Source: Pseudomonadota bacterium
GTDB lineage: Bacteria > Campylobacterota > Campylobacteria > Campylobacterales > Sulfurimonadaceae
Direction: 5' to 3'
Assembly (NCBI GenBank): GCA_043797085.1
Contig: JAZDQA010000001.1
Location: 96,001 to 160,000 of the forward strand
DNA length: 64,000 bases
Shown: positions 1 to 53,381 of the stretch, piece after piece
Numbering within the stretch: the stretch's first letter is position 1
Layout of the letters: the number at the start of each line of letters is the position of its first letter
Position numbers and translations under genes: made by a program
The notes under the pieces: model-generated
Database searches by the model: none
What the model was told of the DNA's origin: nothing
What the model saw: the letters and a program-made list of their open reading frames with translations, nothing else

Positions 1-705
1 ATACTTTGTGCCAATTTTAAAGCCAATAAAACGAGTCAAGAGACTAGAGCATACATGGCGGTTGTTGAATCGTTTGTCTCTGCCAACGAAATCGACGATA
101 CGGTTATTGTTTTCCCTCCTTTTACTGCATTGGAACACATTCCTAGAAATGTTCTGATCGGAGTTCAAAATGCGTATCCGGTTGCTAATGGAGCGTTTAC
201 AGGTGAAATTGCATTGGAGCAACTGGAAGAATTTGACATTAAAACGATTCTTATCGGTCATTCTGAGCGTCGTCATATTTTGGGCGAAACGCAAGAACAA
301 ATTGCGGCAAAATTCCGTTTTTTCGCAAGCCAAGGATTTGTCATCGTCTATTGTGTCGGTGAACCTCTTGGTATTAGACAGCAGGGTGATGAAGCATTGA
401 TGAGCTACATCGAGGCACAATTTGATGGGATTGATCTGAGTTATTCTGATCTTATTTTGGCATACGAGCCGGTATGGGCTATTGGAACCGGATTAACACC
501 TACGAATACACAAATCGAAGCCGTACATGCTGCTTTACGTCTAAAAACAACCGCTCCATTACTGTATGGTGGAAGTGTCAAAGTAGACAATGCAGGTGAA
601 ATTATGGCACTGAGCAATGTGGACGGTGTTTTAGTGGGTTCTGCATCTTTAAGTGCGCATGATTTTTGTGAGATGATCGCGCAAGCGGCAGAGTTGGCAA
701 AATAA
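1..705 (+). CDS. tpiA: Triosephosphate isomerase (5' truncated by window edge)
   Basis: Frame open from base 1 (ILCANFKANK...); motifs GAFTGE, GHSERR, AYEPVWAIGTG, YGGSV, DGVLVGSASL. Confidence 0.97.
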   Translation: MLCANFKANKTSQETRAYMAVVESFVSANEIDDTVIVFPPFTALEHIPRNVLIGVQNAYPVANGAFTGEIALEQLEEFDIKTILIGHSERRHILGETQEQIAAKFRFFASQGFVIVYCVGEPLGIRQQGDEALMSYIEAQFDGIDLSYSDLILAYEPVWAIGTGLTPTNTQIEAVHAALRLKTTAPLLYGGSVKVDNAGEIMALSNVDGVLVGSASLSAHDFCEMIAQAAELAK

Positions 706-730
706 GTATTAAGTGGAAGAACTTAAAATA

Positions 731-808
731 GCACGCAAGCGTGCGTGGGCTTCCTGCCGAAGGAAACTCAGCGTTAGCGTAGCCAAGAGGGATTTTATTC
801 CTCTGGCG
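731..808 (+). repeat. Structured intergenic repeat, family 1 (variant copy)
   Basis: Hairpins GCACGC-AA-GCGTGC and TTCCT..AGGAA, then core GCGTTAGCGTAG, then hairpin GCCAAGAGGGA..TTCCTCTGGC; the core plus 3' hairpin layout matches copies at 17947 and 53238. Confidence 0.55.
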
Positions 809-831
809 TATAAAACGACATAGGAGTTTAA

Positions 832-15643: not shown

Positions 15644-16613
15644 TCGTATAGGCTTTAGGAGAGCCATAGAAAAACCCACGTAATTTTGGGTTGATCTTGA
15701 GTTTTCTGCACTCTTCACGAAACCCCTTATCCATAATCACATTGGTATAATAGGGGGCGATGAACGTGTATCCTTCTTCGATTGACACTACAATAGTTCT
15801 TGAAATAACACAATTTTTTTCTTTTTTTAAATCCTCTTTTTCACTGCCGCTCATAAGTGTCCCCAGCGATTTTAAATGTTGATCGATTCCATATAGGAGA
15901 GAGCGCAGATTGATCGGATTTTTACTCCAATACAATCCATCACACTCTTCAAAATTGATGGTTTCGATGAGACTCTCGTTGTCTTCTTCGAGATAACGAA
16001 AACTTCGTCGCAGGGCATCAGTATGCTCACGCATCATAGGAGTGCTGAATTGATGTCGAAAACGGTTGCGAGTGTATTTCTCATCGTAATTGCTTTCATC
16101 GATAAAATGGGAGAGATTACGTTCATTTAAATACGCTTCGATCTCTTGACGATCGTGTTGGAGTAGAGGGCGTATAAGGGTAATATTTCCTCGTTTATCC
16201 ATCGATTTTACACCGAGTAATTCAGGTAATCCGCAGCCGCGACACAGCTGCATCATCAGCCATTCCAAACGGTCATTGAGTTGATGGGCGGTGAGGAGAT
16301 AGGTGTAGTGGTGTTTTTTTATCAGATAGTCAAAAAATTGGTATCGTTCAATACGTGCATGGTGCTCAAAATTACTGCCGTTGAGATGACAAGAGTGGAC
16401 ATAGCAGTGTAAGCCGTGCGATTGCGCGAGTTGTTCGGCACTGGCGGCTTCATGGTTGCTGGTAGGTCTGGCATGGTAGTTGACATGGGCAATATCAAAA
16501 TCAATCTTATGCTCAAGGAGAAGATGGAAGAGGGCGGTAGAATCGACTCCACCGGAAAAGGCTAAGAGAACTTTCCCCTCACGAAGCTGTTGGAGGTGTA
16601 AAAGCTTACGCAT
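15597..16613 (-). CDS. tilS: tRNA(Ile)-lysidine synthase
   Basis: PP-loop AFSGGVDS, TAHQLND, IRPLL, DESN..YTRNRFR. Confidence 0.94.
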   Translation of the reverse strand: MRKLLHLQQLREGKVLLAFSGGVDSTALFHLLLEHKIDFDIAHVNYHARPTSNHEAASAEQLAQSHGLHCYVHSCHLNGSNFEHHARIERYQFFDYLIKKHHYTYLLTAHQLNDRLEWLMMQLCRGCGLPELLGVKSMDKRGNITLIRPLLQHDRQEIEAYLNERNLSHFIDESNYDEKYTRNRFRHQFSTPMMREHTDALRRSFRYLEEDNESLIETINFEECDGLYWSKNPINLRSLLYGIDQHLKSLGTLMSGSEKEDLKKEKNCVISRTIVVSIEEGYTFIAPYYTNVIMDKGFREECRKLKINPKLRGFFYGSPKAYTTIRRLKEQLKPLLCD

Positions 16614-17922
16614 CGCCTGTGATGGTCGCTAGGAGATGAGTTCCTGAGAGTTCAGTAATGCGGGCACGGTACATTTTTCCGTATGTCAGCTCACTTTCGA
16701 TCTCACGGTCATTGACATAGATTTCACCATCTACATCGGGTGTCCAGTTAAGAGCACGCGCACTGAGGAGAAATTCATGTTCGTCACTCTCTCCGTCGAT
16801 AACGAGAGAAATTTCAGTGCCAACCAGTTTTTGGAGGCTTTCGATTTCGATTTTAGAGGCGATTTTCCCCAGTTTTTTGGCGCGCGCGTTGATGACTTTT
16901 GTAGGGATTTTATCTTCTAGGGTATAGGCACTCGTCCCCTCTTCATCCGAATAGCTAAAGACATTGAGACGGTCAAAGCCAAAAGAAGCGGCAAACTCTG
17001 CCATCTCTTCAAACATTGCTTCAGTTTCGAGAGGATGCCCGACGATGAAGCTGGTACGGATGAACGCGTTTGGCAATGCTTTCATGGCATTGAGAAGTTC
17101 GAGGGTTTTTTCTTTTCCAAAACCGCGCTTCATGATGCGTAGCATATCGTCGTTAATGTGTTGAATAGGCATATCAAAATAGTTGTGAAATAGTTTGGAA
17201 TCGCCGATGGTTTTGATAAGTTTTAGGGTTGTAGTCGAGGGATAAAGGTATAAAATCCGTGCACTTTTGACCCCGTCGATGAGTTCGATCCGTTTGATAA
17301 GATGGATAAGTCCGTCAGGTATATTTTGGTCACGCAAATAGGAGCTTGAATCTTGGGAAACGAAACTAAAATCATAGTATCCCTTCGCGACCAGTCCTTC
17401 GACTTCACGTGCGACACTCTCTAAATCACGCGAGTTGAGTTTTCCTTTGAACGAGGGAATGGCGCAAAAACTGCACTGCTGGTTGCAACCCTCAGAGAGT
17501 TTGATGTAGGCATGATAGGTCGAACCCGTCACGACACGCTCTGCACCGTCGATGAGGTACACTTCTGGAGTAAAACGGCTTTGTTTGAGGGCTAAAAGCT
17601 CATCGATTTTGTCGTAATCACCAACTCCGGTGAAAATATCTACTTCTGTGAGCTCTTTCGCGAGATCCTCTTTATAGCGTTCGCTCAAACATCCTGCCAT
17701 GACTAAAACGGACTCTTTTTTACGTCCTGCGTTGAGGTTGAAAACGGTGTTCAGTGATTCTTGTTTTGCTGCATCGATAAATCCGCAGGTATTGACGATA
17801 ATAACATCTGCATCCGTACCATCATCGGTCATGGTATAGTTTTGAAGCCGTCCTAGCATCACCTCGGTGTCAACGAGATTTTTGGTACAACCCAATGATA
17901 CGATATGAAGTTTTTTGGACAT
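16606..17922 (-). CDS. rimO: Ribosomal protein S12 methylthiotransferase RimO
   Basis: SLGCTKNLVDTE, NTCGFI, CNQQCSFC, TPDVDG. Confidence 0.96.
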   Translation of the reverse strand: MSKKLHIVSLGCTKNLVDTEVMLGRLQNYTMTDDGTDADVIIVNTCGFIDAAKQESLNTVFNLNAGRKKESVLVMAGCLSERYKEDLAKELTEVDIFTGVGDYDKIDELLALKQSRFTPEVYLIDGAERVVTGSTYHAYIKLSEGCNQQCSFCAIPSFKGKLNSRDLESVAREVEGLVAKGYYDFSFVSQDSSSYLRDQNIPDGLIHLIKRIELIDGVKSARILYLYPSTTTLKLIKTIGDSKLFHNYFDMPIQHINDDMLRIMKRGFGKEKTLELLNAMKALPNAFIRTSFIVGHPLETEAMFEEMAEFAASFGFDRLNVFSYSDEEGTSAYTLEDKIPTKVINARAKKLGKIASKIEIESLQKLVGTEISLVIDGESDEHEFLLSARALNWTPDVDGEIYVNDREIESELTYGKMYRARITELSGTHLLATITGDA

Positions 17923-17946
17923 AAATAAACCTTAATTTTTATTTTC

Positions 17947-18015
17947 TGCCCTTTTAAGGGCAAGCTTTAGTGCCATAGCGGCAAGCGTAGCTAAATGGGC
18001 TTTGCTCATTTAGCG
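17947..18015 (+). repeat. Structured intergenic repeat, family 1
   Basis: Hairpin TGCCCTT/AAGGGCA, core AGCTTTAGTGCCATAGCGGCAAGCGTAG, hairpin GCTAAATGGGC-TTT-GCTCATTTAGC. Confidence 0.7.
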
Positions 18016-18104
18016 TTTAAATCAAGGGAACTATGTGCAGTTTTTTAGACATTTACCAACCCTTGGATATTATTAGTGCAATTATAGCCAACTGGAGATT
18101 TGCC

Positions 18105-19034
18105 ATGCTTATACGCCAAAATTACCCCAACTTGATCCCCTCAAATCAAATCACTCCTGAGGGTGTGTACAAAGAGCGTCGAGAACTAATGAAACTGGCG
18201 GCTTCTGCGGTAGCATTAGCAGGGACGCCTTTGTTTTCGGCATTGAGCTATGAGAGGGAGAAAGAGTCTCGAAGTCTAGAGCTTACCTCTTATGATCAGA
18301 TTACGACGTACAATAACTTTTACGAGTTTTCAACCGATAAAGAGGCTCCATCAAAGCTTGCCAAACATTTTAAACCGCGAGCATGGACATTACGCATTGA
18401 GGGAGAAGTGCAAAAAAAAGTGACTTTTGATATTGACCAGTTATTAAAAATGATTCCATCTGAGGAGCGTATTTATCGTTTTCGGTGTGTTGAGGGGTGG
18501 TCAATGGTGGTTCCGTGGGTTGGGATTCCTCTTGCATCAGTACTAAAATATGTCGGATTAACGTCAAAATCTAAATACGTTGAATTTGAAACGTTGTTTG
18601 ATCCGAAACAATTTCCGGCACAGGGGCAAAGTTTCGGTAGTATTGCATTTCCATATCGAGAAGGACTGCGTATCGATGAAGCGATGAATCCTTTGACTCT
18701 GTTAGCGGTTGGGCTATACGGAAAAGAGCTTTTGCCACAAAATGGTGCTCCAATCCGTTTAGTTGTGCCTTGGAAATACGGATTTAAAAGCATTAAAAGC
18801 ATTGTCAGTATCACTCTAAAAGAGAAGCAAACACGATCAACATGGAATGAAATGGCACCCAAAGAATATGGATTTTTTGCCAATGTGAATCCGACTGTCG
18901 ATCACCCGCGTTGGTCGCAGGCGCGTGAACGTCCGTTAGGTCATTTTTTCAAGCAAGATACGCTGATGTTCAACGGCTATGGCAAAGAAGTTGCTTCACT
19001 GTATAAAGGTGTGGATTTAAAAAAGTTTTACTAA
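18105..19034 (+). CDS. msrP: Methionine sulfoxide reductase catalytic subunit MsrP (YedY)
   Basis: Tat motif RRELMK; YNNFYEF, RFRCVEGWS, QNGAPIRLVVPWKYGFKS; start set at ATG 18105 after GGAG. Confidence 0.95.
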   Translation: MLIRQNYPNLIPSNQITPEGVYKERRELMKLAASAVALAGTPLFSALSYEREKESRSLELTSYDQITTYNNFYEFSTDKEAPSKLAKHFKPRAWTLRIEGEVQKKVTFDIDQLLKMIPSEERIYRFRCVEGWSMVVPWVGIPLASVLKYVGLTSKSKYVEFETLFDPKQFPAQGQSFGSIAFPYREGLRIDEAMNPLTLLAVGLYGKELLPQNGAPIRLVVPWKYGFKSIKSIVSITLKEKQTRSTWNEMAPKEYGFFANVNPTVDHPRWSQARERPLGHFFKQDTLMFNGYGKEVASLYKGVDLKKFY

Positions 19035-53029: not shown

Positions 53030-53222
53030 ACTCTGGGCGCAGCGAGTAACCGCAATATGAGGGTTCTACATATACAACTAGTCACATCCGTAGACGTTTC
53101 GGTGTGTCGGTGGTCTTGTTTGAGCGTGTAAACGTGAGAGATTGCCGCCGGAAGAAATGCTCGATGTGGCGCAATTACAGCTTTGAAGAACCAAAGCTAC
53201 TGCGAAACGCCCGCCTGGGCTT
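53030..53222 (+). ncRNA. ssrS: 6S RNA (the Campylobacterota 'purD motif')
   Basis: About 190 nt upstream of purD; TATAAT at 53019; ends pair (GGGCG 53035 with CGCCC 53208; GCGAGTA with TACTGC); followed by a T-run; this position is established for epsilonproteobacterial 6S. Confidence 0.75.
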
Positions 53223-53237
53223 TTACTTTTGATTTGT

Positions 53238-53306
53238 CGATAGAGGAACTTGTCCCTCCATCTACGCTAGCCGCTTGGGCTACTGAAGCTGACTTCTAAC
53301 GAAGCA
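53238..53306 (-). repeat. Structured intergenic repeat, family 1
   Basis: Minus strand: hairpin CTTC-GTTA-GAAG, core AGCTTCAGTAGCCCAAGCGGCTAGCGTAG, hairpin GATGGAGGGAC-AA-GTTCCTCTATC. Confidence 0.7.
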
Positions 53307-53381
53307 GATTTAAAATTTACTTTATTTAAAAATCCATTGGGGCTTTTAGATGAGAGAATCAACTATTTTTTGGGGCAATAT

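Follow-up and report, generated by a model that had tools for sequence, protein, structure and literature searches.

A modular intergenic hairpin repeat family, probably non-autonomous mobile DNA, in genomes of Sulfurimonadaceae

Hairpin elements in the window

A stretch of 64,000 nt of contig JAZDQA010000001.1 (assembly GCA_043797085.1, positions 96,001 to 160,000), hereafter the window, was analyzed with respect to a hairpin element located next to the start of the rimO gene. The genome under study, which belongs to the family Sulfurimonadaceae and is designated G000, comprises 2.4 Mb in 14 contigs and is 95.9% complete. The window contains two copies of this element, named type A, and one copy of a related element, named type B; they are members of a family of small modular hairpin repeats that, with a probability of about 0.7, behaves as non-autonomous mobile DNA of the kind represented by repetitive extragenic palindromes (REPs) and bacterial interspersed mosaic elements (BIMEs). 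The elements and their parts are as follows (R1 and R2 are the covariance models of type A and type B, respectively).

17943..18027, plus strand: type A element, copy 1 (sequence, nhmmer, covariance model R1)
17947-17962, plus strand: hairpin H1 of copy 1, stem TGCCCT / AGGGCA
17963-17971, plus strand: linker AGCTTTAGT of copy 1
17972-17982, plus strand: small hairpin H2 of copy 1, GCC-ATAGC-GGC
17984-17990, plus strand: AGCGTAG tag of copy 1
17990-18014, plus strand: hairpin H3 of copy 1, followed by the tail CGTTTAAAT
53228..53310, minus strand: type A element, copy 2, with the layout of copy 1 (nhmmer, 56 bits; R1, 78.6 bits)
721..818, plus strand: type B element (sequence; nhmmer, 84 bits; R2, 100 bits)

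Copy 1 scored 74 bits with nhmmer and 97.2 bits with R1 (E = 6e-22, at C1:113939-114030 in contig coordinates). An earlier reading made by a model from the letters of the window (hereafter, the sequence-only reading) had reported the two type A copies on opposite strands, and both sequences are present where it placed them. The 3' hairpin, said to start at the final G of CGTAG, does so, since H3 begins at 17990, the last nucleotide of AGCGTAG. The conserved core is indeed flanked by two hairpins, but the small hairpin H2 (GCC..GGC) inside the core, which covaries as well, had been overlooked. Likewise, the supposed partial third copy at 731 is a related element, but a complete one: the type B element at 721-818 is composed of a 5' hairpin (GCACGC..GCGTGC), the hairpin TTCCT-GCCGA-AGGAA, AGCGTTAGCGTAG, a variable hairpin, and CGT, and has the 3' module alone in common with type A.

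Composition of the repeat family

Within the window, the 14-nt core pattern was found twice against 0.29 expected, a number reached by 5 of 100 shuffles, which is weak support for an excess over chance in the window alone. The genome-wide search for further copies that the sequence-only reading had proposed revealed 13 exact core matches across the 14 contigs of G000 and, with nhmmer profiles (E < 1e-3), 60 non-redundant copies, namely, 33 of type A and 27 of types B/C. The genome-wide matches settle the matter: the core with its covarying hairpins is far above chance, and the hairpin feature is real and no artefact. Almost all copies (57 of 60) were located between open reading frames (ORFs), according to a crude ORF map covering ~92% of the genome.

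The units of the family are non-coding and measure ~72-110 nt. All types have a common module consisting of AGCGTAG, which is conserved at no less than 90% among the copies, a 9-10 bp hairpin of variable, compensated sequence, and CGT. In type A, including both window copies, this module is preceded by a 5' hairpin (CTGCCTC..GAGGCA), the linker AGCTTTAGT, and the mini-hairpin GCC..GGC, and in type B by a hairpin (GCAC..GTGC), GTGGGC, a second covarying hairpin (variants TTCCT-GCCGA-AGGAA, TCTCT/AGAGA, and TTCCC/GGGAA), and AGCGTTAGCGTAG. Judging by these sequences, type A may represent the type B core AGCKTTAGCGTAG carrying an inserted H2. Type C is type B with a 20-nt nested hairpin (..GTGCCCC..GGGTA) placed after AAGG; the nested hairpin that defines it (GTGCCC..GGGTA) also occurs in the H3 loops of two type A copies, and the same mini-hairpin forms the tip of another hairpin repeat at ~10 other intergenic places (22 matches vs 1 in a scrambled control). 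In a relative, G005, dispersed copies share a unit of 71-72 nt (CTGCC...GCGTT), which is usually flanked by a further hairpin module. Because of such extra flanking and nested modules, the system is a BIME-like mosaic of hairpin modules.

Secondary structure and covariation

All three hairpins, H1, H2, and H3, were predicted by RNAalifold from 20 G000 copies with compensatory changes in 14 of the 18 pairs, which bears out the claim that the hairpin sequences, unrelated between copies, still pair; H2 is found as AGCC/GGCT, AGTC/GACT, and AACC/GGTT. The analysis was extended to 103 distinct copies from many genomes in an alignment fitted to the model, 75 of whose 100 sources were chosen by the exact core pattern, which excludes the H1 and H3 stems. 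Paired cells accounted for 97.2% vs 76.7% in shuffles (reached by 0 of 500 shuffles), double changes were found in 16 of 19 pairs, and the number of doubly changed cells was 369 vs 99.7 +/- 12 in shuffles, while pairing fell to 38-56% when partner columns were slid by 1-3. One pair of H3 is G.U in 76 of the 103 copies, and U.G pairs recur elsewhere; therefore, the fold is favored on the AGCGTAG strand. Pairing between the terminal G of GTAG and the C of CGT was observed in 19 of the 20 G000 copies and in 101 of the 103 multi-genome copies.

Terminal inverted repeats were not detected by local alignment of the 5' end with the reverse-complemented 3' end in 51 copies (mean score 4.89 vs 4.88 for shuffled sequences), and a run of at least four T at the 3' end, the mark of an intrinsic terminator, was present in 2 of these 51 copies. 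The sequence-only reading could name no known family, and no Rfam match was obtained for six copies even at E <= 1; at gathering scores, the whole window yielded the purD motif and a tRNA and nothing else in Rfam. A match to Rfam or to an insertion-sequence end, or a lack of further copies or of covariation, had been named as findings that would count against that reading; what was found is many copies and strong covariation.

Filled and empty sites

Both type A copies of the window lie antisense to, and upstream of, a gene, as had been claimed for rimO and purD, and the gene identities are backed by NCBIfam. The neighboring features are listed below.

16606-17922, minus strand: rimO (NCBIfam)
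18105-19034, plus strand: msrP (NCBIfam)
53382 (ATG), plus strand: purD (NCBIfam)
53090-53220, plus strand: purD RNA motif, Rfam RF01069 (cmscan, 71.6 bits; gathering score 41), a neighbor of copy 2 outside the element

In the gap between rimO and msrP, the element is present in G000 and G236 (94% identical) and, in a decayed form, in G085; the gap is empty in G035, G073, G091, G079, G245, G243, G242, and G241. Contigs of DNA metagenomes that are ~93% identical also have no insert near rimO: position 17898 is joined to 18029, and 17917 to 18048, so that 130 nt are skipped. Copy 2, which is antisense to purD, follows the RNA motif of this gene and precedes its start codon; the ~96-nt insert is bracketed by TTTAC..TTTAC, a possible 5-nt repeat, and the site is empty in three of the four relatives aligned (G073, G079, and G035), where motif and start codon are uninterrupted, and filled in G000 and G091, where the hairpin element separates them. 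The type B site (721-818) is empty in four of five relatives (G073, G079, G035, and G091), and the insert found there in G085 is unrelated. Each of the three window sites is thus empty in several genomes of the same genus; therefore, the element is mobile.

The reverse comparison covered 16 element loci of same-genus genomes, 14 of which had flank matches in G000; there, eight sites were clearly empty, one was shared, one contained a truncated copy, and four were unclear. Insertions often coincide precisely with a stop codon or fall into the interval from a stop to the start that follows. At L074, the element lies exactly between an overlapping stop and start (TTTGATGA) and contributes a TAA stop and a ribosome-binding site of its own, and at L078 the borders are tight (CTGCC...GGCATTC). 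Copies are gained and lost between species of one genus. As for target-site duplications, TTTAC at purD is possible and none is evident at eight other sites, the borders being blurred by ~25% interspecies divergence.

G005 contained at least 87 matches, with a within-genome mean identity of 0.85 and the nearest neighbor in the same genome for 14 of 14 copies; in G000, the corresponding values were 0.64 and 8 of 26. The number and ~85% likeness of the G005 copies point to a recent burst, and the G000 copies, those of the window included, are by the same measure old, diverged insertions. Tandem arrays with a period of 71-103 nt occur in G005, and they look like slippage duplications because their inner units are without the 5' arm of H1. 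Amplification in bursts in some lineages and the formation of tandem and mosaic clusters are thus properties of the family.

It should be noted that some gaps harbor other repeats in other species. An unrelated hairpin repeat (L272, ..TCATTCCCGCGAAAGCGGGAATC..) lies in G236 at the site orthologous to G000 C10:4150-4290, and the insert of G085 at the site orthologous to window 700-830 (L098) is likewise a different hairpin repeat; since different repeats occupy the same intergenic slots across species, certain gaps are repeatedly filled hot spots. A DNA contig of run X6 from a related population, covering window 16921-18154, shows 72 differences from the window in 997 positions towards rimO and none in 107 towards msrP, as counted from the empty-site joint, and this mosaic suggests a recombination breakpoint at the rimO-msrP gap.

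Duplicated gene starts at rimO and on contig C10

The insert at rimO is bracketed by a diverged direct duplication of 30 nt (score 13, null maximum 11), as follows.

17893..17922, minus strand: first 10 codons of rimO, functional copy, left member of the duplication
17923..17942, minus strand: stretch between the element and the rimO ATG with the present rimO ribosome-binding site (AAGG), delimited by alignments
18023..18052, minus strand: pseudo-copy of the rimO start, right member, which reads MSKKLHIVPLI and then a stop and is contiguous with the ancestral upstream DNA

The stretch 17923..17942 is missing from the empty-site genomes and has a homologous stretch in G085 and G236. The halves of the duplication differ at 8 of 30 positions, although the element is still missing from lineages of 87-93% identity. 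The start of another gene is duplicated perfectly over 27 nt around a second copy in G000 (C10:4176-4249). At this site, a type A element unaccompanied by any repeat occurs in G238 and G235, nothing is inserted in G240, G237, G244, and G239, and a different hairpin element occupies the site in G236. In both duplications, the outer copy is continuous with the ancestral flank of the empty type, and the inner copy accompanies the element and a new ribosome-binding stretch that is homologous between G000 and G085 or G235.

A long target-site duplication as the mark of insertion was considered and rejected: flanking repeats of 27-30 nt accompany 2 of the 60 G000 copies and 0 of ~45 copies elsewhere outside tandem arrays, the C10 element exists without the duplication, and the rimO halves have diverged. 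On these grounds, the duplications are either secondary or imported with foreign DNA; by comparison of the alleles, the C10 duplication arose secondarily to the insertion, and the rimO duplication probably did so too. Filled alleles may have been imported by recombination anchored in the gene, with an illegitimate join upstream. Such import would explain the duplicated gene starts at rimO and the other site and would fit the patchy spread of filled sites, which is incongruent with phylogeny.

Distribution across genomes and orientation

A covariance model was built and searched across the family Sulfurimonadaceae, as the sequence-only reading had suggested, with up to 42 candidates scored per genome for R1. 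Type A was detected in 84 of the 101 sampled genomes and in 23 of 23 genera, and type B (R2) in 80 of the 101. Both types are absent from at least 11 genomes, including G066 of the same genus, where 3-4 would be expected if they were independent, a comparison confounded by relatedness; among the element-negative genomes are G066, G002, G004, G027, G028, G039, G042, G062, G069, G070, and G094. Across the class, R1 matched in four families of the same order only (f1, 2 of 6 genomes; f6, 1 of 2; f9, 1 of 1; f11, 2 of 3), type A thus being present in Sulfurimonadaceae plus three further families of that order; in the two largest families of the class, R1 found it in 0 of 51 and 0 of 53 genomes. 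The copy number per genome ranges from no detected match to at least 87. The exact core was found in at least 123 stretches of public species genomes; the titles among the stretches listed were Sulfurimonas, Sulfuricurvum, Sulfurimonadaceae, and Campylobacterales, with a few metagenome-assembled genomes labeled Sulfurospirillum or Helicobacteraceae.

The orientation of the copies relative to genes was tabulated, as the sequence-only reading had advised, and no strand bias common to the genomes emerged. Type A copies of G000 were sense in 7 cases, antisense in 18, and located in divergent or convergent gaps in 8; in other genomes, 15 were sense (four of them from one array), 14 antisense, 5 in convergent gaps, and 4 in divergent gaps. 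The gene upstream of type B was co-oriented with it for 21 of 27 copies in G000 and for 14 of 24 elsewhere. With respect to replication, type A showed no bias in G000 (leading-strand counts 12 vs 20). Given a fold constrained on one strand and an orientation to transcription that varies, passive inheritance or recognition in the form of single-stranded DNA would be a better account than an obligatory function in mRNA. Copies of the element are contained in metatranscriptome contigs (loose ends at 747, 802, and 17961 in run X1), which are contigs alone, carrying no strand, transcript ends, or level.

Search for a mobilizing enzyme

The transposase or nuclease that the sequence-only reading thought might be linked to the element was sought in G000 and its relatives, and none was found. 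Genes for Y1 transposases are present in 50 of the 101 family genomes, namely, in 44 of the 84 type A-positive and 6 of the 17 type A-negative ones; Y1 presence therefore does not track the element. None of six Y1 loci in relatives (genes of ~255 aa) is flanked by the element, and one has a type B match 1.2 kb away. Mobilization by a REP-associated tyrosine transposase (RAYT), as in REPtrons, was rejected as a candidate because of the absence of Y1 from G000, the lack of co-distribution, and these unflanked loci. Descent from the IS200/IS605 elements of relatives was likewise rejected, neither element type matching the six loci L100-L105 with nhmmer. Y1 genes of ~220-350 aa in relatives are bracketed by short inverted repeats of their own (GGGGTCAGG.. 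/ ..CCTGACCCC, or TTACACCCCAGGGGTTGAATCTCCAC), and at L109 and L110 (G083 and G021) the Y1 genes lie beside a different repeat. This corresponds to the "TIRtron" layout of PMC3733652 and is unrelated to the hairpin element.

Other enzymes were also considered. A search for Y2_Tnp (IS91) gave no match in G000, but its control matched no genome either. A long autonomous form was sought in G005 by BLAST with one unit, and no isolated element ends were seen (40 of 150 candidates scored); all of the 64 matches were whole units or tandem partials except for one 30-nt match to the 3' flank of the query. Reverse transcriptase was rejected as the mobilizer because the sole RVT_1 gene of G000 belongs to a diversity-generating retroelement in a prophage, as is evident from its neighbors: it is enclosed by a bAvd-like gene and phage tail genes, and a gene with an FGE-sulfatase domain lies upstream. 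This retroelement (C11:90394-93212; L281 1895-4713) comprises a target gene of FGE-sulfatase/lectin fold, the bAvd accessory gene, and the reverse transcriptase, and directly precedes phage tail sheath, tube, and chaperone genes reaching ~95110.

Other repeats in the genome

The hairpin repeat that has the mini-hairpin GTGCCCTTTAGGGTA as its tip carries it within a longer stem (..CCGTACTTCAC / GATACGG..) at the following intergenic places of G000.

C1:90712, C5:113218, C5:186211, C6:41263, C7:64713: hairpin repeat with the GTGCCCTTTAGGGTA tip
C8:108784, C11:26084, C12:37419, C13:289741: the same repeat

At C11:159734-159900, a truncated type B copy adjoins three short hairpins of a distinct kind (CTCCCACTC..GAGTGGGAG, TTCCCACTT..AAGTGGGAA), and together they make up a mosaic cluster and not an array of clustered regularly interspaced short palindromic repeats (CRISPR). 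The genome also contains at least eight copies, 81-91% alike, of a repeat of ~155-175 nt resembling miniature inverted-repeat transposable elements (MITEs), with terminal inverted repeats of ~45 nt (..CTGATGTTAC..TTGAATTTTCAAGAAAATCA..).

C5:48720-48900, C8:18150-18325, C9:81777-81942, C9:85975-86139: MITE-like repeat
C13:165741-165897, C9:39216-39371, C10:66552-66703, C13:30561-30715: MITE-like repeat

Insertion-sequence ends were found at the contig ends of C2 and C5 and at C6:146295-146509, where the C-terminus of a transposase (..VESVHRQFR..) is followed by a terminal repeat. This insertion sequence, presumably a member of the IS256 family, breaks the assembly at several contig ends of G000, and its ends are unrelated to the hairpin family.

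Interpretation and alternative explanations

The sequence-only reading had offered two possibilities, a functional RNA and a non-autonomous element recognized as a folded strand, and it is the latter that the data favor: the repeat is multicopy and dispersed, its orthologous sites are empty in relatives, a burst has occurred in G005, and its pairing, with G.T wobble, is strand-asymmetric. In the reading to which a probability of about 0.7 was assigned above, the hairpins and the conserved unpaired core would be features by which one strand, probably in the form of single-stranded DNA, is recognized, as the strand asymmetry of pairing and the variable orientation to transcription suggest; some trans-acting enzyme would move the copies, and filled alleles may also spread between lineages by recombination. 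The other possibility, a cis-regulator or ribozyme dedicated to rimO or purD, does not hold for the window copies, whose sites are empty in close relatives, whose orientation is inconsistent, and for which Rfam gave no match. Even so, the leaders of both genes may be altered by the element, copy 2 being interposed between the purD RNA motif and the start codon.

Several observations weigh against mobile DNA of the REP/BIME type. No mobilizing enzyme was identified, and Y1_Tnp (PF01797), IS110, and TnpB had no match in G000 at its completeness of 95.9%; the Y1 genes at L106, L107, and L111 (G073 and G008) have their own GGGGTCAGG-type motif alongside. A clean de novo insertion was not seen, nor did a consistent target-site duplication emerge from the sites compared. 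Across four families, the unpaired core hardly varies, and a host function may hold it constant; the element also differs at only 2 of 85 positions between G000 and G236, the whole region being 94% identical, which would fit selection for a host function, albeit on very small numbers. Finally, the top strand of type B is the leading strand in 22 of the 27 G000 copies (p = 0.0015), a bias confounded with gene orientation.

One alternative is a structural module selected by the host, acting either as RNA (hairpins that stabilize or process the mRNA of operons) or as DNA (sites for a conserved host protein, as BIMEs are bound by gyrase and IHF), for which mobility is the mere mode of arrival. The conservation of AGCTTTAGT / AGCGTAG to at least 90% in different genera and in four families, the strong stem covariation including G.U pairs, the tight fit of copies between co-transcribed genes to which they provide stop codons and ribosome-binding sites, the prevalence of type B after a co-oriented gene in G000 (21 of 27), and the copies in metatranscriptome contigs, where DNA carry-over is possible, are all in line with it. 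This explanation is nevertheless rather unlikely, given that close relatives have nothing inserted at these intergenic sites, the orientation to genes is inconsistent across genomes, different element types occupy one slot (the C10 site in G236 and the type B site in G085), and the copy number varies from no detected match to at least 87. Still less can be said for small RNA genes transcribed on their own or for intrinsic terminators of transcription, which stable hairpins, the intergenic location, and a G.U wobble favoring one strand might suggest: the flank columns upstream of H1 are not conserved and hold no conserved promoter-like sequence, the T run is confined to 2 of 51 copies, the elements abut or overlap ORF ends on both sides, and Rfam gave no match, so that we consider this the least probable of the explanations, with only a slight chance of being right.

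That these are true REPs, with a RAYT that recognizes GTAG and the hairpin as single-stranded DNA and whose gene was lost from G000, is regarded as improbable. The 3' module, GTAG followed by an imperfect palindrome of 9-10 bp, has the REP signature, and GTAG and CGTC repeats are listed for Sulfurovum sp. NBC37-1, both according to PMC3733652; among four genomes compared, the Y1 carriers G005, G008, and G073 (of the 50 in the 101 genomes) have younger or more copies than G000. Against this, Y1 is missing not only from G000 but also from the copy-carrying G035, G079, G091, G010, G018, and G017 and is present in the element-free G066 and G002; 44/84 vs 6/17 does not amount to a real association, none of the six examined Y1 loci is flanked by the element and five of them carry other repeats, and the final G of GTAG is paired here. 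A more tentative extension of the mobile-DNA reading, possible though clearly less probable than that reading itself, is a RAYT-independent, strand-specific DNA/RNA module of three hairpins with an invariant unpaired core, present in at least four families of sulfur-oxidizing Campylobacterales and moved by a mechanism new for REP-like repeats. The candidates would be an unrecognized host-encoded enzyme acting on single-stranded DNA, or natural transformation with illegitimate recombination copying whole filled alleles; gene starts duplicated over 27-30 nt, like that of rimO, would be the trace of the latter route. In places, the element may also have been co-opted for stop codons, ribosome-binding sites, or mRNA hairpins.

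For annotation, the family provides a searchable class of intergenic repeats in Sulfurimonas, Sulfuricurvum, and relatives that two covariance models find, which should prevent such repeats from being miscalled as riboswitch-like motifs or small RNA genes. Contig breaks and chimeric joins in metagenome assemblies of these bacteria, which abound in groundwater and at vents, are explained by the repeats (loose ends, a false 17-kb joint). REP-like elements are usually tied to RAYT transposases, and a widespread REP-like family with a burst in G005 and no co-distributed RAYT makes alternative mobilizers of hairpin repeats testable. Insertions in 5' leaders and between translationally coupled genes are natural perturbation experiments on gene expression; in particular, the genomes with filled and empty purD leaders are a natural test of whether the spacing from the motif to the ribosome-binding site matters.

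Comparison with known systems

BOX elements of Streptococcus pneumoniae, for which no dedicated transposase is known either, and MITEs of the Correia/ERIC type are short, non-coding, modular, and co-transcribed with their neighbors and can supply or disturb expression signals. The present element shares these properties but is asymmetric and strand-specific, without terminal inverted repeats or a constant target duplication; the lack of terminal inverted repeats also separates it from classical MITEs derived from elements with DDE transposases. Miniature elements derived from IS200/IS605 (palindrome-associated transposable elements, PATEs) are asymmetric, have no inverted terminal repeats, carry a subterminal hairpin at each end, and produce little or no target duplication. 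The element resembles them in its asymmetry, the lack of inverted terminal repeats, strand-asymmetric pairing, and a hairpin near each end; the differences are the lack of similarity to the IS200/IS605 elements of relatives, the absence of Y1 and TnpB from G000, and the fact that no fixed target tetranucleotide was seen.

Full-text searches on repeats of Sulfurimonas and Sulfuricurvum yielded no description of the hairpin family, which is apparently undescribed. The closest known kind is the GTAG-tagged REP superfamily with the REP/BIME sequences of Enterobacteria such as E. coli (Di Nocera, De Gregorio and Rocco 2013, BMC Genomics 14:522, PMC3733652). In place of a single palindrome, the present element is a composite of 2-3 hairpins with ~25 nt of conserved unpaired core, this core is conserved over four bacterial families and not merely within a species or genus, and the last G of the AGCGTAG tag, itself at least 90% conserved, is paired, the GTAG of the superfamily being unpaired; the element also differs from REPtrons in having no linked or co-distributed RAYT (a Y1 HUH transposase). 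At the same time, it is a short stem-loop, repeated and mostly intergenic, and the 9-10 bp stem of H3 falls within the 6-13 bp described for REPs. It further has in common with REP/BIME sequences a GTAG tag beside a short imperfect palindrome, stems with compensated changes and G.T pairing, intergenic copies numbering tens to hundreds, mosaics with fixed motifs, clusters and tandem groups, and a patchy occurrence between related species.

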